Shown: positions 5,561 through 64,000 of the stretch, piece after piece
Layout of the letters: every line of letters begins with the position of its first letter
How positions within the stretch are numbered: position 1 is the first letter of the stretch
Origin: Patescibacteria group bacterium
GTDB lineage: Bacteria; Patescibacteriota; Minisyncoccia; Phycocordibacterales; GCA-2747955
DNA: 64,000 nt
NCBI GenBank assembly: GCA_048538215.1
Contig: JBLYPV010000001.1
Location: 11,495-75,494 of the forward strand
Direction: 5' to 3'
Made by a program: the position numbers and the translations under genes
The notes under the pieces: generated by a model
Told to the model about the DNA's origin: nothing
Database searches by the model: none
The model's input: only the letters and a program-made list of their open reading frames with translations

Positions 5561-5774
5561 TGGGGGAAGTAGGGGGAGTCGGTACCAGGTTGCAAAGCGT
5601 CGCTTGCGCTCGCTAAGCACCTCCTACCCGGCCTCGGCTTGCAAGGCACATGGCCGACCGAGTGCCTTGCATATGCCTCCGTCTTTCGATTCCCCACGCA
5701 GGCAAAGCAGTTTATCTGCTCCACTTTCACTAATAAAAATAGCCCCACTATCGTGGAGCTTATTTTTATACTAG

Positions 5775-6214
5775 TGGAAGTGGGGGGAATCGAACCCCCG
5801 TCCACATACGGATATCTCGTGCACATCTACGAATGCTAGTTTATTTATTATCTCAAGATAATTGAGAGCTTCACGCTAGTGTCTATAAAATAAACTAAAC
5901 GATACTAGAGCTAGTCGTAATTTATTTTATATAGAGATCACGACACTTCTCTATACTATCCTTCTTATCTCACAATAGAGGGGGAATGAAGGAATATTCA
6001 CCCGTTCTACCGCCAAGTACGCTCGGGAGTATAAATGCTCAACCGACGGCTTACGCCATTGCGTATACTGGAGCGAGAGAAGCGTATGGGCTAGCCATAG
6101 CTCCTTTCACTTTTGCGACTACGTTTGCACGTAAAAAGTATGGGCCTTTTACAGATCTGCCCAATCTACATCGCATACACGGATATGTTCGTATTGTCAA
6201 AGCCGGTCACTCCC
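5775..6214 (-). ncRNA. ssrA: tmRNA (SsrA), ~440 nt
   Basis: The minus-strand 3' end …GGACGGGGGUUCGAUUCCCCCCACUUCCA matches the canonical tmRNA TΨC arm and acceptor end (compare E. coli GGACGCGGGUUCAACUCCCGCCAGCUCCACCA). The 5' GGGAGUG pairs with the 3' CACUUCC to form the acceptor stem. An internal tag ORF starts at resume codon GCA (…GCA AAA GUG … UAC GCA AUG GCG UAA) and ends …VYAMA*. CCA is not encoded. It is antisense to the spurious ORF 5986..6225. Confidence 0.8.
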
Positions 6215-6993: not shown

Positions 6994-8130
6994 ATGATTA
7001 GATATAGGGTAATGCTTAGTGCCAAGCGCTATATACACCATCTTGCTTCTAAGTCTAAAATTACTATCAATGGTAGCCAGCCTTATGATATCCAAGTATA
7101 TGATGATACAGCATATCGTGATATCTATCTATTAGGACGAGTGGGGGTAGGGGAAAGCTTTATGGCGAATAAATGGGATAGTGATGATTTAGTAGAATCA
7201 ATCTCACGTTTAATTTCAAGTGGAGTAGCAGATGAAATGCGCTCCCTGTCCACATTTTTCTTGGCTTGTAAGACCAAGCTTTTTAATCTGCAAAGTCGAA
7301 CACGAGCATTTGAGGTAGCTCGTGCACACTATGATTTTGGCAATGAGCTTTATGAGGTGATGCTCGATTCACGGATGGTATATACTTGCGCTGATTTTCA
7401 ATCAGTAGAGAGTGGGGATTTGGAATCTGCCCAAGAGGCGAAGCTTAAATCAATTTGTGATAAGCTCGATTTGAAGCCAGGCAAGCGCTTACTCGATGTG
7501 GGTTGTGGCTGGGGGAGCTTGATGAAATACGCCGCAGAACATTATGGGGTAGAATGTGTGGGAATCTCGGTATCTCGTGAGCAAACCCAGTGGGCGCATG
7601 ATTCTTTTGGTGATCTGCCGTGCACTATAGAAGTAGTAGATTATCGTGATTTTTATGACGATAGAGGGTTTGATTATATTTGCTCAATTGAGATGATAGA
7701 GGCGGTGGGGCAGAAAAATTTTCGTAGCTATTTTGAAAAATTATATTCTTTGCTTACAAGCGATGGAGCACTTTTGATCCAAGCGATAGTTTCAGATAGT
7801 AAACATGGTGGGGCTGATCCTTGGATAGATAAGTACATTTTCCCTAATGGTACTCTCCCGAGCCACTTGGAATTAGTTGGTGCTACCGAGGATTTGTTCT
7901 ACTGGGAATCGGTAGATAATATTGGTCCCTCCTATGAACACACGCTTTTAGAATGGTGGCGTAATTTAGAGTCAGGTTATTCTAAGCTTCAATTGGATGA
8001 TCCAGAAAAATACACTGATACCGTCTTACGGATGTTTAAATACTATCTCCATTCTTGTGCAGCTCTCTCACGCACTCGCCATATGCACACTTGGCAAATA
8101 GTATATACCCCAAAGCCCTCAAGTCAGTAA
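6994..8130 (+). CDS. cfa: Cyclopropane-fatty-acyl-phospholipid synthase (SAM-dependent methyltransferase)
   Basis: Aligns over its full length to Cfa from memory (ITINGS…, LQSRTRAFEVARAHYDFGNELYEVMLD, LLDVGCGWGSLMKYAAEHYG, DPWIDKYIFPNGTLPS, YYLHSCAALSRTRHMHTWQIV). The ORF track begins at 6955. I moved the start to the internal Met at 6994 from alignment to E. coli Cfa. Confidence 0.85.
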   Translation: MIRYRVMLSAKRYIHHLASKSKITINGSQPYDIQVYDDTAYRDIYLLGRVGVGESFMANKWDSDDLVESISRLISSGVADEMRSLSTFFLACKTKLFNLQSRTRAFEVARAHYDFGNELYEVMLDSRMVYTCADFQSVESGDLESAQEAKLKSICDKLDLKPGKRLLDVGCGWGSLMKYAAEHYGVECVGISVSREQTQWAHDSFGDLPCTIEVVDYRDFYDDRGFDYICSIEMIEAVGQKNFRSYFEKLYSLLTSDGALLIQAIVSDSKHGGADPWIDKYIFPNGTLPSHLELVGATEDLFYWESVDNIGPSYEHTLLEWWRNLESGYSKLQLDDPEKYTDTVLRMFKYYLHSCAALSRTRHMHTWQIVYTPKPSSQ

Positions 8131-13371: not shown

Positions 13372-13782
13372 TCACCTGCTCAGCATAAATCGTATGACGA
13401 TGCCAGAGATGTTGGCAAAGACCAATACGAGGATGAGCCAAGATGAGAGGACGAATATTCGAATAAGTCCATCACCCCCCATCATCCATTCTGTAAAGTA
13501 TAAAAATGTGGGGAGGGGCATAATCTCAGCTATATCTCTATATATAGGGCCAATGCTCTCTTCATCCCCCGCTACTATATTTAAAATTATGCCAGATACC
13601 AAGGCTAAATGTATTAAGACAAATATGTTTTTTGCATTTTCTTGAGAAAGTAGCAAAGAGGGAAAAATAAAATTATCCCCTGCTGTTGCCAATACAAAAA
13701 TATAGGATATATACCCTGCAAAAGTAAGGCAGGCGATAGAGCGGAGCTGGCTCGTGGTCATTAGAGATCTCCTTTGACTCAA
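13372..13782 (-). CDS. Membrane protein (136 aa, multi-TM)
   Basis: Hydrophobic ORF. Confidence 0.4.
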   Translation of the reverse strand: MSQRRSLMTTSQLRSIACLTFAGYISYIFVLATAGDNFIFPSLLLSQENAKNIFVLIHLALVSGIILNIVAGDEESIGPIYRDIAEIMPLPTFLYFTEWMMGGDGLIRIFVLSSWLILVLVFANISGIVIRFMLSR

Positions 13783-13888
13783 GGCTCAATTAAGTAAAAC
13801 TATACTTATAAAAACAACTCTGTCAATAAATATATCTTTTGCACTATTCCTCTTACGAGGAAAGCTAATTTTTGCTATACTAAGCCTC

Positions 13889-14659
13889 ATGGCGATCATA
13901 GATGTCACAAGACCTGGAAGTAAAATAGAGCAGGGCAATCTCCATATTCTCACCAAATCACAACGTCGGCTTGAGGAGCTTTTTACTAGTATGGGGTTTC
14001 AAATTGCGCTTGGTCCTGAAGCTGAACACGAATTTTACAATTTTGATGCACTCAATGTACCAAAAGATCACCCTGCACGGGATATGCAAGACACTTTTTT
14101 TCTCTCCGATGTACCTGAGACAGTTTTGCGTACACATTGTACAGCAGTGGACATCCATTATATGGAGCATCACGAAGCCCCCCTCCGAGTACTTGCGCCT
14201 GGACGCGTATATCGTAATGAATCAATTGATGCTACACATGAAGCCCAATTTTATCAGCTTGATGGCTTGGTAGTTGGGAAAACTATTTCCTTGGCTAATC
14301 TTAAATATATTTTAGGATCGGTAGTGCGGGCTTTTCTTGAGGATGAGAGTATTAAAGTGCGCTTTCGTCCGGGCTATTTTCCTTTTGTAGAGCCGGGAGT
14401 GGAGCTTGATATTTCTTGTGTTCACTGTAAAACAACAATCAGCCGGGAGTGTAATGTATGTAAAGGTTCGGGATGGATTGAGCTACTGGGGGCAGGGATG
14501 CTTCATCCCAATGTACTTCGTGCAGTAGATATTGATCCGAAAAAATATTCAGCACTTGCTTTTGGTATAGGGCTTGAGCGTTTGGTAATGCTTAAATATG
14601 GGATCGAAGATATTCGTAATTTTTATGATGGCGAGATTCCATTTCTAAAGCAGTTTTAA
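13889..14659 (+). CDS. pheS: Phenylalanine--tRNA ligase alpha subunit (short form, catalytic core only)
   Basis: FTSMGFQIALGPEAEHEFYNFDALNVPKDHPARDMQDTFF matches the PheS core, and pheT lies directly downstream. The ~90-aa N-terminal coiled-coil of canonical PheS is absent. Confidence 0.85.
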   Translation: MAIIDVTRPGSKIEQGNLHILTKSQRRLEELFTSMGFQIALGPEAEHEFYNFDALNVPKDHPARDMQDTFFLSDVPETVLRTHCTAVDIHYMEHHEAPLRVLAPGRVYRNESIDATHEAQFYQLDGLVVGKTISLANLKYILGSVVRAFLEDESIKVRFRPGYFPFVEPGVELDISCVHCKTTISRECNVCKGSGWIELLGAGMLHPNVLRAVDIDPKKYSALAFGIGLERLVMLKYGIEDIRNFYDGEIPFLKQF

Positions 14660-14662
14660 TAT

Positions 14663-16633
14663 TTGATTATGAAGTTTTCTTATAATTGGCTACAAGAATA
14701 TATTAGTGACCCTCTACCACCAGTAGAGGAGCTTGCCAATGCTCTTGGTATGCATTCATTCGAGCTTGAGGGGGTAGAAGCACTCGAGAATGGTGATTAT
14801 CTTATCGATTGGGATATCTTGCCCAATAGGAGTAGTGATTGCCTCTGTTATGAAGGAGTAGCTCGGGAAATTGCTGCTGTCTGTGAGCTTAGATTTAAGC
14901 CCTACCTGCAAGATCTTCAAGAAGCTTCGGGAGTACAGAGAAGTGATGAGATGATTGATTTCTCTTTAGATACTGATCTAGTGCCTCGGGCCACCAAGCG
15001 CTATGTTGAAGGAATTACCATAGGGCCTTCACCTGATTGGCTTCGTGAGCGTTTGGAATCTATTGGACAGAAATCTATTAATAATGTAGTAGATATTACT
15101 AATTATGTAATGTTTGTCACTGGCCAGCCAGTGCACGCTTTTGATTATGATAAGTTGGCTGGGGGAGGCGAGGCTCGTCGGATGAGCATCCGCCATGCTC
15201 AAGATGGAGAAGTAGTGCATACGCTGGACGGTGGAGAATATACACTTGATACATCAATGCTTGTTGTAGCTGATGCGGAGAAGGCGCTCGACATCGCTGG
15301 TATCAAAGGGGGTAATAACAGCGGAGTAGATGAGAGTACTACACGAATAGTCCTTTCGGCTTGTAATTATGATTATGCGGTAATTAGGCAGACTTCAAGA
15401 AAATTAAAGCTCACTACTGATGCATCTAAGCGCTATGAAAATGAAGTGCCATTATGTAAGGCTGATAGGGCAATGGCTCTCTTGACCCACTTGCTTGAGT
15501 CGGAATGTGGGGCACGAGTAAGCCCAGACATTATTGATACTGCTCCACAAATTTCTAGCGAGGTAGCCCCAATTACTTTTACTTTAGATCATACGAATAA
15601 CCTATTAGGCCTCGAGCTTACAGCCGAGGAGGTAATTAGCTTACTTGCTCGTTTGGAGATACACACCACCTCCCCCCAAGACAGTGTACTGAGGGCTCTT
15701 GCTTTGCCCGAGCGTTTGGACCTTCGTATTGCTGAAGATATTATCGAAGAAATTGGGCGATTGTATGGCTATACAAATATTCCTGAGCTGGCAATCGAAG
15801 AAGGATTTCCTATACCAGAAATAAATATACTTAAACAATCCTGGTATTCAATAGGGGATACATTGGTCAATCTTGGATTTTATGAGGTATATAATCGTTC
15901 ACTTGTTGCAAGTGGTAGGGTGGCTCTTGCCAATGCCTTACACAGTGAAGCAGGAAATTTACGTGACAATTTGCACACCGCTCTCCTTGATCGAGTAGCT
16001 AGAAATAGTATCCATAGTGAAGAGCCAAAGCTTTTTGAGATTGGCAAAGTGTTTACAGGTATAAGTGATGATGGAGTAGATGAGCATTGGTCTTTTGCGG
16101 GCATTATGGGTCACCAAAAAATTAAAGACAAGCACAAGCAAGATATTTTTTTGCAAACCAAAGGGGTGCTTGAAACAGCTTTTCATACCATAGGAGTGCG
16201 TAATCTAAGCTGGGAAGAGGCAGGTGAGGAAGAGGTGATAGCGCTACTTCGCTGTGGTGATGATGAAATCGGCTTTGTTGGGGTAAATTACTGGGAAATT
16301 AATTTTGAAAAACTTATCAAATATATCGATAGAAGTGTTTCTTATGTGCCACCATCACGCTTTCCTAAAATTGACCGCGATGTCGCCGTATGGGTACCAC
16401 TTGATATTCGAGTGCGTGATGTACGGGCATTAATTGAAGGCTCGGGGCCAGAAAAATGTATCAGCACGACACTTTTTGATGTCTATGAAGATATTGATAA
16501 TAATCGTAAGTCAATTGGCTTCCGATTAGTTTTCCAGTGTTGGGATCAGACATTATCAGATGAATATGCTAATGAACAAATGCAAAAGGTGTACAAAGTA
16601 CTTCAGGCACAAGAGGGCTTTGAAATTCGATAA
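14663..16633 (+). CDS. pheT: Phenylalanine--tRNA ligase beta subunit (656 aa)
   Basis: Begins 4 nt after pheS. The B3/4 and B5 regions are recognisable. Confidence 0.8.
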   Translation: MIMKFSYNWLQEYISDPLPPVEELANALGMHSFELEGVEALENGDYLIDWDILPNRSSDCLCYEGVAREIAAVCELRFKPYLQDLQEASGVQRSDEMIDFSLDTDLVPRATKRYVEGITIGPSPDWLRERLESIGQKSINNVVDITNYVMFVTGQPVHAFDYDKLAGGGEARRMSIRHAQDGEVVHTLDGGEYTLDTSMLVVADAEKALDIAGIKGGNNSGVDESTTRIVLSACNYDYAVIRQTSRKLKLTTDASKRYENEVPLCKADRAMALLTHLLESECGARVSPDIIDTAPQISSEVAPITFTLDHTNNLLGLELTAEEVISLLARLEIHTTSPQDSVLRALALPERLDLRIAEDIIEEIGRLYGYTNIPELAIEEGFPIPEINILKQSWYSIGDTLVNLGFYEVYNRSLVASGRVALANALHSEAGNLRDNLHTALLDRVARNSIHSEEPKLFEIGKVFTGISDDGVDEHWSFAGIMGHQKIKDKHKQDIFLQTKGVLETAFHTIGVRNLSWEEAGEEEVIALLRCGDDEIGFVGVNYWEINFEKLIKYIDRSVSYVPPSRFPKIDRDVAVWVPLDIRVRDVRALIEGSGPEKCISTTLFDVYEDIDNNRKSIGFRLVFQCWDQTLSDEYANEQMQKVYKVLQAQEGFEIR

Positions 16634-59587: not shown

Positions 59588-60031
59588 TTAATACACACTA
59601 AATCTCATCAAAGCGCCAGTATTCGTATGTAATTCTAAATCTCCAGATTCATTTATTTGATAGCTAGCTATATTTTGAATATCATCAAGATAGATTTTTT
59701 CGAGAGTTTTTCCGCTGCAAGCCATTTCGGTCACCCCCAATTGTCCAATAGTAATATGAGTGTCATTAAGCTCGAATGAGCCAAAAGCAGTATTGCAATC
59801 AGTCCCCGTAGAGAATTGTCCATCAGCTAAAAAACGGACAAGAAAATCTTCGGGATTATGAGGAGCTCGGGTGTCTCCATTGCTATAGCTTGTTTGCTCC
59901 CACTGCCAGGAATGTGAAGTAAGAGGGTGATTGCTATTGGGATGTGAGATATCAATATATCCAGCTCCCTGGGCATACCACATACCCATACCTAAGATAA
60001 CAAAAATTCCCAAAATACTTAGCGCTTTCAT
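59588..60031 (-). CDS. Secreted META-domain (HslJ-like, DUF306) protein
   Basis: Signal peptide, then …FLADGQFSTGTDCNTAFGSFELNDTHITIGQLGVTEMACSG…, which resembles the META/HslJ domain. Confidence 0.5.
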   Translation of the reverse strand: MKALSILGIFVILGMGMWYAQGAGYIDISHPNSNHPLTSHSWQWEQTSYSNGDTRAPHNPEDFLVRFLADGQFSTGTDCNTAFGSFELNDTHITIGQLGVTEMACSGKTLEKIYLDDIQNIASYQINESGDLELHTNTGALMRFSVY

Positions 60032-60079
60032 ATACTATAGGGCTATTAGCTAATAAATAATAAAGGCAGAAATAAATTA

Positions 60080-60547
60080 TTATATTTCTGTTACAGGAGC
60101 AAAGTACATAATGGTACCATCGGCTGTTTCAAGCTCGAGTAGGCCTTCTGCATTAATGCGAGCATTATTTACTTGATTAAGATCGTCCAAGTATACTCGC
60201 TCTTGGATATCGCCAGCACAGGCCATTAAGGTAACAGCCATAGGGCCAAAGGTAATAGTTTCTCCATCAAGGGTGTATGAGCCGGAAGCGGTATTACAAT
60301 CAGTACCAGTAGAGAATTGCCCATCGGCAGTGAATCTTGATTCGAATAATTCAGGATGCTCTGAGATGACCTCATCTCCATTTTGGTAGACTGTGCTATC
60401 CCACTGCCAGCTCGTGTCTGCAAGACTTGGCCCTGTTTGATTGCTAAAGATGCCGATCTGATTTGTATAGGCATACCAGGTGCCAGCTCCTAAAGCGATT
60501 AGTAATACTAAAACTATAATTTTTTTCATATAGAAGTATTGTAGCAT
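60080..60547 (-). CDS. Secreted META-domain protein, tandem paralog
   Basis: …FTADGQFSTGTDCNTASGSYTLDGETITFGPMAVTLMACAG…. Highly similar to the neighbouring gene. Confidence 0.5.
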   Translation of the reverse strand: MLQYFYMKKIIVLVLLIALGAGTWYAYTNQIGIFSNQTGPSLADTSWQWDSTVYQNGDEVISEHPELFESRFTADGQFSTGTDCNTASGSYTLDGETITFGPMAVTLMACAGDIQERVYLDDLNQVNNARINAEGLLELETADGTIMYFAPVTEI

Positions 60548-60636
60548 TAATTTTACTCAACTTATACTCATAAAATATCGTATAATTAGCTAACTGGCTG
60601 GGTAGGTGGGCTTTTTGGATACAATAAAAAACTCTC

Positions 60637-60688
60637 CTTAGGAGAGGTGATTCGAGGGCTTCGGATGAGCCCTCGAATCGATGATTTA
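60637..60688 (-). terminator. Tandem hairpins (ttcgagggct…agccctcgaa, then ctctcc taa ggagag + T6) on the minus strand
   Basis: Lies immediately 3' of the minus-strand gene 60689..61417. Confidence 0.6.
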
Positions 60689-61417
60689 TCAACTTGGATG
60701 GAAGAGTAATCGAGCTTCTGCCCGAAATCCCTCGCCGGGCTTGAGTGATTTTTGCTCACCTTGTTTTCGCCCAGGATGCAGAAGCATCACCGCTAGGTAG
60801 CGTGCGATGTCTGTGGAGAATATTGCCCAGCACTCCCAATTGCTGGCATTCTCCACCTTGGTGACGCCACTTGCTGTACCAAGCTCAAGATACGCACTTG
60901 CTGTGGGCCAAAGCTCAGGAGGAGCGGACTCCTTGATGTCTGTCCAATCAATTAGGGCGCCTTTTTCATCCCGGAGGGTGAAATTTTGCCCATAAGTGGC
61001 GAGGTAGAATATCATAGCGAAATTGAGCGGTAGGGGATTTTCTTCATTGCCCTCATCTTTGTGCAAGATGGAGAAGCTATGCTCAAGCTCCTGCATATTC
61101 CCGTGAGCGGACTCACGAATTTGCTGGCAGAAGAGGGCAGGCCAATTCCACCTTTGATGAAAGGTAAATGAGCTGATCTCTCCCTGATCGCCCCGGCGAA
61201 AATTTGTGTGATCGGTGGGGCGAAGCTTTCGACTGCTCTCGTAGAGAGCAGTATCGAGGAGCTCCCCAGGGCTTGCTTCCCGCACGATGGGGTAGCAGAT
61301 GAGGCTCCCACCGTGCTTCCTCTCGTTATCGAGAGGATAGAGAATGGGCACGCCGGTGTGGCTCGTCCAGAGAGTGATCCGTCCGTTGGTCGGATCGATA
61401 TGATGATTAGTGCTCAT
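60689..61417 (-). CDS. Aldose-1-epimerase-fold-like protein (weak assignment). Noticeably higher GC than its surroundings.
   Basis: KHGGSLICYP… loosely resembles the HGG(I/V)P.C.PWFG region of D-hexose-6-phosphate mutarotases. Its codon usage is GC-rich (~50%+) against a ~40% background. Confidence 0.3.
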   Translation of the reverse strand: MSTNHHIDPTNGRITLWTSHTGVPILYPLDNERKHGGSLICYPIVREASPGELLDTALYESSRKLRPTDHTNFRRGDQGEISSFTFHQRWNWPALFCQQIRESAHGNMQELEHSFSILHKDEGNEENPLPLNFAMIFYLATYGQNFTLRDEKGALIDWTDIKESAPPELWPTASAYLELGTASGVTKVENASNWECWAIFSTDIARYLAVMLLHPGRKQGEQKSLKPGEGFRAEARLLFHPS

Positions 61418-61592
61418 CTGGCACTCCTCTTTTCTAATGTGCGATTTGACTGTAATGATACAATTATTTAATGAATAGTCAAGGTATTCGTAATATCAGA
61501 TTTATTTTAATCAAAGCTGTATTATACACATATAGTAATTTATATTAAAATTACATAGAAAAGTAGTAATTTTTTGATACAATGTTTGACAT

Positions 61593-61795
61593 TGCCAGAT
61601 GCGTCTTGTGGTAATGGCAATGGTTCTGGTCCCAAGCTTGAATCTAGCATCTAGGTACACGAACCGTCTCTCGAGAATGATACAATTTATATATTGCCAG
61701 ATCGTCTAATGGTAGGACGACCGGTTCTGGTCCCAAGCTTGAATCTAGCATCTAGGTACACGAACCGTCTCTCGAGAATGATACAATTTATATAT
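61593..61795 (+). repeat. Two tandem ~101-bp decayed copies of the tRNA-Gln unit (the 5' half is tRNA-like; the 3' half has diverged)
   Basis: Copy 2 (61695-61795) shares the first 39 nt exactly with the intact tRNA (tgccagatcgtctaatggtaggacgaccggttctggtcc). Copy 1 (61593-61694) is further degraded in the D-arm. Copies 1 and 2 share an identical tail. Each unit keeps the upstream gatacaat motif. Confidence 0.7.
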
Positions 61796-61866
61796 TGCCA
61801 GATCGTCTAATGGTAGGACGACCGGTTCTGGTCCGGTTAATCTAGGTTCGAGTCCTAGTCTGGCAG
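61796..61866 (+). tRNA. tRNA-Gln (anticodon CUG)
   Basis: UGCCAGA U CGUC UAAUGGUAG GACG ACCGG UUCUGGU CCGGU UAAU CUAGG UUCGAGU CCUAG UCUGGCA G. All stems pair, the anticodon loop is UUCUGGU, and CCA is not encoded. Confidence 0.8.
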
Positions 61867-62038
61867 CAAAAATAATATCATTGCATGAGTTTGTAAATGG
61901 CTCCCGTCTGGTAGCTTGTAGCAAAGCAAAAACACTCTAGTGAGTGTTTTTGCTTTGGAGATGTTGACCTTTGCCAACATCTCAGTGCTTATAACTTGAT
62001 CATTCTCTAATCAGATAAGCCCTCTATAATTTAGAGTA

Positions 62039-62191
62039 TTATCTTTTCTTTTTTGTAGCGGTCTTTTTGGCCTTAGATGATGCTCCAGTTGCAACACTTT
62101 TGGTCTTTGAAGCGGGCTTTTTATTTCTTGAAACACTAGGAGATTTTTTTGCCACCTTCTTAGATGCTTGCTTTGTATTTGCCATTTCCAT
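62039..62191 (-). CDS. Lys/Ala/Ser-rich small basic protein (50 aa), weakly supported
   Basis: MEMANTKQASKKVAKKSPSVSRNKKPASKTKSVATGASSKAKKTATKKKR. Its composition is histone-H1/Hc1-like. No clear SD is present. It is below the ORF-track cutoff. Confidence 0.3.
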   Translation of the reverse strand: MEMANTKQASKKVAKKSPSVSRNKKPASKTKSVATGASSKAKKTATKKKR

Positions 62192-62399
62192 GCAATTACT
62201 TTAATAATCACGACGCATGGTCGCTTAGACTGAATATACACTTTTTATTTTTTAATTCTATCTACTTTAATAACAATTTTTTGTAATCAAATAAATTATA
62301 TAGTGATGACAAAGTGGGCTTAAAATTTGATATAAAGAGCACTAATTTTGTTTTGAAGCAATCTAATTAGCGTACCTTACATAAATATATATTCGTAGT

Positions 62400-62580
62400 A
62401 TGAACAAAGATACCGTACAAATTAGAATTGATCGCAAGACTAAACAAGAGGCACGAAAAATCTTGGATCAATTAGGGATGATATGTCTATTGCAGTAAAG
62501 TCGTTTGTAAATAATGAGGGTATCGTCAGGAGATCCCCTTGGATCTCAAAACAAAAATGGATTTACTTTGGAGTAAGAAT
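62400..62580 (+). pseudogene. DinJ/RelB-like antitoxin remnant (frameshifted)
   Basis: MNKDTVQIRIDRKTKQEARKILDQLGM matches the DinJ N-terminus, then stops after 32 aa. The continuation (MSIAVKSFVNNEGI…) is in another frame. Confidence 0.5.
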
Positions 62581-62671
62581 GAGCCTTGCTGGAAGAAGTT
62601 GTAGATGGTAAAAAATGGAGAAAGGATTTGTGATATATAGATGCTCTTATGGCAGATGTAAATAATTAGAT

Positions 62672-62948
62672 ATGAAATATCAAGTGGTACGAACTGCTCG
62701 TTTTAAGAAAGCTTTTAAGCGCATTAAACAAATACAAGGATTGAAGGAAGAAATTTTTTAGAGGTTGCTACTACTCTTGGATCAGGAGAAAAACTAAGCT
62801 CACAGTATAGGGACCATAAACTTAATGCTAATTTCAAAAATTTAGAGAGTGCCCTCTAGTGCCAGATGTATTGTTGATTTATGAAATTGATGGAGAGATA
62901 TTGATCTCTACTCTTATTAATATTGGTGATCATAATCAGGTATCCTAA
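62672..62948 (+). pseudogene. YafQ/RelE-family toxin remnant (two frameshifts)
   Basis: Three frame segments (MKYQVVRTARFKKAFKRIKQ…EEIF; EVATTLGSGEKLSSQYRDHKLNANFKN; RECPLVPDVLLIYEIDGEILISTLINIGDHNQVS) together reconstruct a ~92-aa YafQ-like protein. Confidence 0.5.
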
Positions 62949-63056
62949 GGCCCATTAAAGTATTAGAGAGTGGTCTTATTATCTCTTGCCCTGTTCGCCA
63001 TCGAAGGGCTATTGGGGCAGGTATTACAAATAAAAATGTTATATAATAAATTTGTT

Positions 63057-63278
63057 ATGAGTGATAACAAAGACAAAAGAGGGAAGCCCGATAGCTATCT
63101 AATTAGCTTCAAGCAGAAGTATGAAGTTGATTATGCCGTCAAACAGCTACAGAAGCAGTTTGAAAATAAAACCAAAGAGCAAGTAACAAAAGCTCTAACA
63201 GATGCTGCTAAAACAGTAGACCCAAGTAGGGGGCGGGAAAGAATTATGAAGGAGGCTCGCAAGAATTTGCGCACATAG
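63057..63278 (+). CDS. DUF3606-like small protein
   Basis: MSDNKDKRGKPDSYLISFKQKYEVDYAVKQL…VTKALTDAAKTVDPSRGRERIMKEARKNL resembles the DUF3606 pattern (…DR.RI…EDYEV.YW.KK.GVS…L..AV..VG…). A TATAAT precedes it. The ORF-track start at 62970 is replaced by the Met at 63057, with a TATAAT 13 nt upstream. Confidence 0.4.
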   Translation: MSDNKDKRGKPDSYLISFKQKYEVDYAVKQLQKQFENKTKEQVTKALTDAAKTVDPSRGRERIMKEARKNLRT

Positions 63279-63334
63279 CTATCGATAAATAAAGCTATAA
63301 CAAAAAAATACTTGCTTATAGTATAATAGGTACT

Positions 63335-63862
63335 ATGAAAGTATCACATTTTATTTTTGGAATCGGAATATCGCTATGGGCTATTCCGATGGCGTTTTCT
63401 TCAGATGTTTTTTTGCATATCATTGTTGCCTCTGCGCAAGATTATGAATGCAACATTTACTCCACTAATGCCGTAGGATGTGAAGCATATGCAGATATCA
63501 AGTACAACTGTCTTTTTCCGGATGAATTAAATGAAATACGCACTGCTGAAGCAAAGACGGGGGCATATACCTATCCAGATTTTTGCTTGGTTACCTGCGC
63601 TGAACAAAGCGGAATTCCTCAAGGATGCAGAGCTGGAAGAGTAGGTATCGCTCAAGTAGGTGTAGCAGAAGTAGACATAGTTGTCTCGGAAGATAGAGCT
63701 CTGCCTCAGGTTGATCCAGAGGAGAAAACTATTATAGAAAATGCTTATCAAGGAGCTAAGCTCGCACTTGATAGATTTTGGAAATGGCTTAAGAGGGTGA
63801 GTGCTGGCGATACATTTGAATTGGAGCCCATGAGTACTCCTGTTGCTGGCGTGCGGGGCTAG
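63335..63862 (+). CDS. Secreted Cys-containing hypothetical protein (175 aa)
   Basis: Signal peptide (MKVSHFIFGIGISLWAIPMAFS), 8 Cys, no family recognised. Confidence 0.4.
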   Translation: MKVSHFIFGIGISLWAIPMAFSSDVFLHIIVASAQDYECNIYSTNAVGCEAYADIKYNCLFPDELNEIRTAEAKTGAYTYPDFCLVTCAEQSGIPQGCRAGRVGIAQVGVAEVDIVVSEDRALPQVDPEEKTIIENAYQGAKLALDRFWKWLKRVSAGDTFELEPMSTPVAGVRG

Positions 63863-64000
63863 ATTTAGATCCTCGTTTGAAATCGAGAATAAAGAGTATA
63901 TTTTTTTCTTCAGTAATCCACATTTACATATATACCCTATGGGGGTATACTAGGTATATGAAAGTAGGAATCAAAAAGCAGGTAAGTAATCGTATCAATC

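Follow-up and report, generated by a model that had tools for sequence, protein, structure and literature searches.

The question raised by this locus is how one tRNA-Gln(CUG) gene came to lie behind two truncated copies of itself, and whether those copies serve any purpose. In the window, i.e., the whole stretch of 64,000 nucleotides analysed here, which comes from a Patescibacteria (CPR) genome, three head-to-tail tRNA-Gln units are found on the same strand at positions 61593–61867, with spacings of 102 and 101 bp, in agreement with the three units of about 101 bp described in the initial annotation. The history that we favour, and hold to be fairly probable, is that two successive small tandem duplications gave rise to two non-functional, truncated copies, which are followed by the one functional gene. 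The array lies within a 620-bp intergenic gap between a 242-aa ORF (60689–61417, minus strand) and a lysine-rich ORF (62039–62191, minus strand), and the window also carries a tRNA-Ile gene (ARAGORN and Rfam) and the gene run prfB-ftsE-ftsX-pyrG. At 5772–6214 on the minus strand Rfam recognises a full-length tmRNA (87 bits), on which ARAGORN, although it also searches for tmRNA, is silent.

The order of elements in the array is P1, A1-B-T, A2-B-T and A2-B-C, the last A2-B-C being tRNA-Gln(CUG). A1 occupies 61593–61621 and is followed by the 11-nt B block GGTTCTGGTCC at 61622–61632 and by the tail T at 61633–61694. In copy 2, A2 spans 61695–61722, and after the next B block the second T runs from 61734 to 61795. 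Each unit opens with TGCCAGAT, at 61593, 61695, and 61796, as judged from sequence reading and alignment. The B block covers the CUG-containing anticodon loop, together with the last two stem pairs and the first two 3'-strand bases; it recurs at 61622, 61723, and 61824 with 11 of 11 positions identical in all three units. It is the most conserved element of the array, and the D-arm and anticodon-stem positions beside it differ in copy 1. From 61622 to 61834 (plus strand), Tandem Repeats Finder (TRF) reports a perfect tandem repeat with 2.1 copies of a 101-bp unit (100% identity, score 426), so that 213 bp are perfectly repeated within limits set by the B block GGTTCTGGTCC. Since this array is the sole substantial tandem repeat in 64 kb, it is far beyond what chance would give.

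Only the third unit forms a cloverleaf, as the initial annotation had noted, and ARAGORN (with introns on or off) and Rfam agree on this point. Copy 3, at 61796–61867 on the plus strand, is identified as tRNA-Gln(ctg) by ARAGORN and scores 59.4 bits against a gathering score of 29 in Rfam; its fold has a z-score of −2.7 relative to shuffled sequences, and CCA is not encoded. It is identical at 71 of 72 positions to a Saccharibacteria gene (L003), and with near-identical genes present in seven Patescibacteria MAGs it qualifies as a canonical tRNA gene. The cloverleaf persists in the predicted fold of the whole array transcript. The trailer at 61868–61889 (plus strand) is partly complementary to the leader at 61771–61790, with a marginal p value of 0.023 in the duplex test, and the predicted pairing of the two would lengthen the acceptor stem of a long precursor. 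Farther downstream, a perfect 16-bp hairpin at 61922–61957 (inverted repeat I4) is likely to be the terminator of the tRNA transcription unit; in relatives, a hairpin is likewise found directly 3' of the tRNA. Just before this hairpin, at 61906–61915 on the plus strand, GTCTGGTAGC resembles GTCTGGCAGC of the gene and could be a remnant of a tRNA 3' end, a weak similarity that is not significant alone (p about 0.05). A nested model, with a gene split by an insertion, was considered from this remnant and not used, given a p value of only about 0.05.

Copies 1 and 2 do not behave as tRNAs. Neither is called by Rfam at E ≤ 10, nor by ARAGORN with introns allowed, and extreme relaxation of ARAGORN gives only spurious non-Gln calls on them. 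The pseudo-copies fold no better than shuffles and fall outside the canonical definition of a tRNA gene. The check with ARAGORN suggested in the initial annotation returns a single tRNA, and neither upstream copy emerges as a bona fide or intron-containing one; the Rfam search at E ≤ 10 together with the intron-permitting ARAGORN run rules out intron-containing or otherwise unusual tRNAs. The pseudo-copies are unable to fold as tRNAs, and most likely they serve no function of their own.

The two pseudo-copies differ strikingly in how they relate to the gene. The 5' half of copy 2 (61695–61733, plus strand; TRF and alignment) is identical to the functional gene over 39 of 39 nucleotides and diverges thereafter, and its 62-nt tail is identical at all 62 positions to that of copy 1; both identities had been seen in the initial annotation. 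The perfect 101-bp duplication (61622–61834, 100% identity) accounts for both: copy 2 is a chimera made of the 5' part of the real gene and the tail of copy 1, and thus a recent recombinant and not a decaying gene. The progressive decay of the two upstream copies proposed in the initial annotation can therefore not apply to copy 2, which shows no decay in a duplication that is still 100% identical. The accompanying view that the identity pattern reflects rearrangement and not slow drift is borne out by the discordant matches among the units.

Copy 1 (61593–61632, plus strand) is recognised by alignment as a degenerate tRNA-Gln 5' half, is not called as a tRNA, and spans the acceptor 5' strand through the anticodon loop plus two nucleotides. 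Compared with the real gene, it carries nine substitutions and an inserted G, all located between the acceptor strand and the anticodon loop; A1 and A2 are only about 70% alike. Pairing is lost in both the D-stem and the anticodon stem, and the fold is similar to that of shuffles (z = −0.6). A perfect 8-bp inverted repeat is present at 61590–61622 (plus strand; P = 0.0034 against shuffles), with the arms CATTGCCA at 61590–61597 and TGGCAATG at 61615–61622; no such repeat is found in copy 2. The 3' arm largely coincides with an 8-nt block (61614–61621) that differs from the real gene at six of its eight positions, and the majority of the substitutions in copy 1 lie in or beside TGGCAATG. This suggests that the block changed in a single event of template-switch type rather than through many point mutations, and with such a signature the divergence of copy 1 would not be simple drift.

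The origin of the tail is more difficult to trace. Tail 1 (61633–61694, plus strand) can be divided into a tRNA-like part (nt 1–24), a part without a source (nt 25–45), and the motif TGATACAAT at nt 46–54, which constitutes P2; the identical tail 2 (61734–61795, plus strand; TRF and sequence identity) carries P3 at 61779–61787. When anchored directly after the B block, behind GGTCC, nt 1–24 of the tail (CAAGCTTGAATCTAGCATCTAGGT) align with tRNA positions 40–58 (GGTTAATCTAGGTTCGAGT), with p = 0.002 against shuffles and p = 0.0006 against random genomic segments. A BLAST comparison of unit 1 with unit 3 is continuous from TGATACAAT to tRNA position 57 (72.5% identity, E = 2e-8), and MAFFT places the start of the tail in the same register. 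The first 24 nt thus probably represent the variable loop and T-arm in degenerate form, altered by small insertions and a 7-nt ATCTAG slip, and not foreign DNA put in their place. In the initial annotation the tail was taken for a replaced 3' half; since its first 24 nt still align with tRNA positions 40–58, this is probably not the case, and the anchored alignment (p = 0.002), the BLAST match of 72.5%, and the MAFFT register all describe at least that part of it as a degenerate 3' half instead.

For the tail as a whole, comparison with the 3' half plus trailer is not significant in local or global tests (p = 0.16–0.4). Nt 25–45 show no detectable homology to either the 3' end of the tRNA or the DNA preceding P1, and no match to this segment is found in the window, the fetched loci, phages, plasmids, viral contigs, or JGI metagenomes. 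An exact 31-mer of the tail is absent from viral contigs, a 23-mer is absent from JGI metagenomes, and short-word BLAST of the tail against the window and all fetched loci returns only chance 9–12-mers. The search of phage and plasmid sequences advised in the initial annotation yields no match outside the tRNA part; distant BLAST matches to phages and plasmids are confined to that part, an absence that is not proof of native origin. The tail was also considered as a known RNA family or structured RNA, and this was rejected on chance-level Rfam matches and a fold z-score of about 0.

Based on these identities, a two-step history can be proposed. In an older step, a segment reaching from the −10 element into the tRNA body would have been duplicated in tandem, leaving an upstream pseudo-copy that corresponds to copy 1 and its tail. 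Copy 1 could have originated by duplication of a whole unit that subsequently eroded, or by a duplication that ended inside the tRNA. A few events would then have altered it, namely the inserted G, the hairpin-forming 8-nt block, small insertions, and the 7-nt slip in the T-arm. In the recent step, unequal crossover or replication slippage between the B blocks GGTTCTGGTCC of the pseudo-copy and the real gene would have duplicated exactly 101 bp, converting the locus to A1-B-T-A2-B-T-A2-B-C with a chimeric copy 2; as a crossover within B, this would join A1-B-T and A2-B-C on misaligned sister molecules. A single crossover in the 11-mer predicts that copy 2 matches the gene at 39 of 39 positions and the tail at 62 of 62, with copy 1 deviating at 10 positions. 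One such crossover or slippage event is the simplest cause of copy 2, and the perfect 101-bp repeat is the footprint of the latest duplication.

Some observations fit the two duplications less well. Nt 25–45 of the tail are without detectable homology, which leaves the first step the less certain of the two. An anticodon block preserved at 11 of 11 positions is somewhat unexpected in a pseudo-copy that is about 70% identical, and the exact copy number rests on a single assembly. No genome is close enough to show an intermediate state, as the neighbouring ORF is an orphan and the PyrG relatives are at most 81% identical. Furthermore, relatives and other metagenomic contigs also have partial copies of tRNA-Gln close to the gene, which hints that a process more specific than random slippage may operate there.

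A −10-like motif, TGATACAAT, precedes each unit, at 61575, 61678, and 61779. This part of the initial annotation stands, but the gap of 9–10 nt given there is slightly off, as it measures 9 nt in copy 1 and 8 nt in each of the other two copies. According to the promoter scan, P1 (61556–61583, plus strand) comprises TAGAAA, a 16-nt spacer, and TACAAT with a TG extension, and no other site combines a −35 with a −10 element; P2 and P3 are extended −10 elements only, and P3 is the promoter-like site nearest the real gene. Four relatives (L011, L012, L014, and L136) have TGGAAA, a 16-nt spacer, and TATAAT with TG upstream of their tRNA-Gln, in the same layout as P1, and P1 is probably the ancestral promoter of the locus. 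A scan of the array reveals no terminator-like site between the units. Judged from these signals, the pseudo-copies most likely lie within a long leader transcribed from P1, and P2 and P3 may act as extra transcription starts. Transcription of the pseudo-copies is a plausible prediction, in which case processing by RNase P would free the single true cloverleaf of its leader.

The comparison with related genomes, also advised in the initial annotation, shows that the array is not shared: near pyrG, relatives carry either one gene, on the opposite strand, or no gene. In seven Patescibacteria MAGs that share the 5' half, the gene is single and normal and is not accompanied by a 5'-half pseudo-copy; one of these MAGs is L007, which has a repeat of the 3' end downstream. 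Identity to the nearest PyrG relatives is 74–81%. In L011, L012, L014, and L136, one tRNA-Gln(CUG) gene is located 2–5 kb downstream of pyrG, on the opposite strand relative to the window; it differs in sequence from the window's gene, is preceded by a conserved 50–110-nt leader, and is the one intact gene in each case, with no 5'-half pseudo-copy. The closer relatives L009 and L010, as well as L137, have no tRNA-Gln nearby. Because the relatives examined carry either a single gene without a pseudo-copy or none nearby, the array is specific to the lineage of the window.

The promoter and leader of tRNA-Gln in these four relatives are found on the minus strand at 13763–13900 (L011), 15035–15172 (L014), 7786–7923 (L136), and 15811–15948 (L012). 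They share the promoter CTGGAAAAAA...TGATATAAT and the leader GTACAAAAC...TGGCGTATT, and L011 and L014 have about 57 extra nucleotides resembling an internal duplication of the leader (TGGCGTATTGTCAGTACA and TGGCGCGATACTTTGTACA). The array was also compared with this long leader as a possible homologue and the idea was discarded, as the similarity is not significant and no relative's leader resembles a unit of the window.

As for the neighbouring genes, the interval from pyrG to the array encodes, in the window, a pair of side-by-side META-domain paralogues (59588–60031 and 60080–60547, minus strand), where the relatives have genes for DsbB-like and metallo-beta-lactamase-fold proteins. The presence of different genes downstream of pyrG in the relatives indicates that the region is rearranged. 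For the 242-aa ORF at 60689–61417 (minus strand), a search of 5.8 billion clustered proteins returns only the ORF itself, and it has no Pfam domain; the bin that holds it (60001–62000) has a GC fraction of 0.44, above neighbouring bins. Downstream of the tRNA, the GC fraction at 62001–64000 is 0.36, compared with about 0.41 elsewhere. This segment contains small ORFs of 50 aa (lysine-rich), 102 aa (with FIMAH below threshold), and 175 aa, none with a significant family match, and beyond the end of the window, L015 shows genes for a CsoR-like repressor and a DUF305 protein.

Partial copies of tRNA-Gln are not restricted to this locus. A metagenome scan for two anticodon blocks 70–100 nt apart returned at least 120 loci, most of which resemble coding repeats, judged by multiple closely spaced matches. 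A called tRNA-Gln is present in five of the matches listed, of which four are genuine tRNA-Gln loci accompanied by partial copies and the fifth (L061) is a 33-bp tandem repeat. At least four other contigs (L022, L024, L025, and L063) thus contain partial copies beside an intact tRNA-Gln(CUG) gene, and together with the window at least five loci, from different assemblies and several clearly different organisms, combine an intact gene with partial copies. L022 (JGI contig Ga0172375_10016378, 3527–3760, minus strand) holds an unrelated tRNA-Gln(CUG) with the acceptor sequence TGGGGAT. Its layout is as in the window, with a 5' half ending just after GGTCCA, a tail of about 55 nt with GGTATAAT, and an intact gene; the D-loop of its pseudo-copy carries an inserted perfect palindromic hairpin, TTCGCCGTACGGCGAA.

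The loci in L024 (Ga0210057_1002768) and L025 (Ga0302286_10023964, 1000–1350) are nested: the intact gene lies between 5' and 3' fragments of a second copy, which are interrupted by inserts of about 90 nt, and its leader and trailer contain strong inverted repeats, roughly 20 nt long, on either side of it (p < 0.003 and p = 0.007, respectively). By sequence, this looks like a gene split by a cassette carrying a replacement gene; Rfam finds nothing besides the tRNA in L024 and L025. In L063 (Ga0136558_1002661, 1497–1670), tRNA-Gln(CUG) comes immediately after pyrG and in the same orientation, and an 88%-identical copy of tRNA positions 13–73, about 40 nt after the gene, represents a duplication of the 3' part. 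The leader and trailer of the intact gene are complementary also here (p = 0.013), so that leader/trailer complementarity is seen in the window, L024, L025, and L063 (p from <0.003 to 0.023), compared with none of 10 single-copy loci. In addition, three Patescibacteria genomes have direct repeats of the tRNA-Gln 3' end (16–24 nt, 92–100% identity) located 150–670 nt downstream, at 381–404 in L007, at about 15425–15447 in L012, and at about 14280–14295 in L014. These att-like scars are separated from the gene by very little DNA. Taken further, tRNA-Gln(CUG) would be a recurrent target of small-scale recombination that duplicates, splits, and rebuilds the gene at the anticodon stem-loop, with the array in the window as one of its products. 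We regard this as an unlikely account of the array; candidate processes behind it are miniature cassettes in which inverted repeats enclose an intact tRNA-Gln, or illegitimate recombination that incoming DNA undergoes where homology anchors it.

The anticodon stem-loop is a classic crossover site for integrases, and the break between tRNA-like and other sequence falls there. The array might accordingly be the scar of integration and excision by an element with a promoter and a 5' half, inserted perhaps twice in tandem and later mostly deleted to leave the 62-nt remnants. Formally, A1-B-T, A2-B-T, and A2-B-C correspond to the attL-attP-attR of a tandem integration, and with the 3'-end repeats in L007, L012, and L014 and the 3'-part copy in L063, the gene seems to be a recombination hot spot, to which the weak possible 3'-end remnant at 61906–61915 could be added. 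However, a partial tRNA copy left by integration is normally the 3' part, and the element encodes an integrase, whereas the duplicated parts in the window are 5' halves with a promoter (positions 1–40 and a degenerate stretch to about 57), and only 62 nt, of which a third are still tRNA-like, separate the copies. No integrase is found by Pfam among the ORFs examined at 59.4–63.9 kb or among the genes of L015 (to about 64.9 kb); in the former interval the two META domains are above the cut-off, LiaF-TM and FIMAH are below threshold, and the remaining ORFs are without matches. Searches of phages, plasmids, viral contigs, and JGI metagenomes do not return the tail, and tRNA-Gln halves of the kind expected in a phage attP were not found in viral contigs. 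An origin by integration also needs several ad hoc deletions, whereas one crossover explains copy 2. The repeated site-specific integration and excision suggested in the initial annotation is difficult to reconcile with 5' halves placed 62 nt apart, the lack of an integrase in the genes searched, and a tail without matches, and we consider it improbable.

Assemblers can misjudge the copy number of a 101-bp repeat with 100% identity, and the source of the sequence is a metagenome-assembled genome, so fewer units could exist in reality if the assembler had traversed the repeat cycle too often or merged strain variants. An independently built contig argues against this. Logan contig L001 (SRR35023069) corresponds exactly to 60676–61651 of the window and stops at 61651, which equals 61621 + 30 and requires A2-B-tail in the reads. 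A locus with two units shares 11 nt only and has no repeated 31-mer, and hence no branch in a graph with k = 31; the 31-mer starting at 61622 gains two predecessors, and L001 its end, only if A1-B-T and A2-B-T are both present in the reads. The contig that holds the window is 622,806 bp long, which furthermore suggests a long-read or curated assembly. For the right-hand branch, the Logan contig reached through the 175-aa protein starts at 62668, too far away, and the 50-aa and 102-aa products are unrecorded. At least three units thus exist in at least part of the population, and the array is unlikely to be an invention of the assembler. This check does not depend on the assembler, although the MAG may derive from the same run; we give an inflated copy number little weight. 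A similarly low probability is assigned to an array kept because it is useful, with three −10 elements raising the expression of tRNA-Gln(CUG), or with a half-tRNA leader or leader–trailer helix controlling processing. In favour of a use, TGATACAAT is perfect in all three units despite the changed body of copy 1, the units are not separated by terminator-like sites, and the leader–trailer helix is predicted (p = 0.023). On the other hand, copies 2 and 3 arose too recently for their conservation to be informative, a −35 element is missing from P2 and P3, the pseudo-copies have no significant structure, and all relatives examined lack the array; the motifs TGNTANAAT are also not enriched in the window (20 observed against 17 expected). 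The two tandem duplications remain the reading that we prefer.

The best analogue known to us is found in plastids. Pseudogene arrays of trnF(GAA) occur in the trnL-trnF spacers of Brassicaceae, Solanaceae, and Asteraceae (PMC3786074; Koch et al. 2005, cited there), in which between one and seven partial copies immediately precede the functional gene, conservation is highest in the anticodon domain, and promoter motifs are duplicated as well (PMC3786074). As for trnF, the partial copies in the window are head-to-tail and directly 5' of a single functional gene, with units of tens of bp, an anticodon domain that is the best-kept part, and promoter motifs copied along. The trnF copies are regarded as non-functional by-products of duplication, as we do here. 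In contrast to trnF, which is located in plastid genomes, the array belongs to a free-living bacterial genome, and the Solanaceae copies usually lack acceptor-stem residues, whereas those in the window keep the 5' acceptor strand. Variation in copy number among relatives is documented for plastid trnF. By this analogy, the array would be a set of tandem partial tRNA pseudogenes of a known kind, in a streamlined bacterial genome.

Two other systems share fewer features. As for partial tRNAs derived from integration, a truncated copy lies near a complete one and the break is in the anticodon stem-loop region, and such fragments are known to confuse annotation (PMC9897764). In the published integrations, the partial and complete tRNA copies are located at opposite ends of an element of about 9–23 kb (PMC9897764), unlike the copies in the window, which are 62 nt apart and head-to-tail with no element between them. 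The split tRNAs of Nanoarchaeum equitans (PMC2237900) resemble the array in that a 5' half with its own promoter-like element forms a separate unit. Unlike in N. equitans, there is no separate 3'-half gene in the window beyond the weak 10-mer and no complementary joining sequence, the break is at 40/41 and not at 37/38, and a complete gene is present. With a break after position 40, no 3' half apart from that 10-mer, and a complete gene, a Nanoarchaeum-type split tRNA gene is rejected for the window. To our knowledge, bacteria do not possess the archaeal splicing endonuclease.

With two tandem duplications as the preferred history, the locus provides a clean snapshot of how an identity of 11 nt can mediate a duplication of 101 bp in a streamlined genome of about 0.6 Mb, and it also shows a probable template-switch event. 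For annotation, the upstream units should be marked as pseudo or partial tRNA-Gln and not as genes, and the locus should not be read as the boundary of a prophage or island. If partial copies prove to be systematic in Patescibacteria, they would point to a specific recombination process at tRNA-Gln, which would be worth a proper survey.
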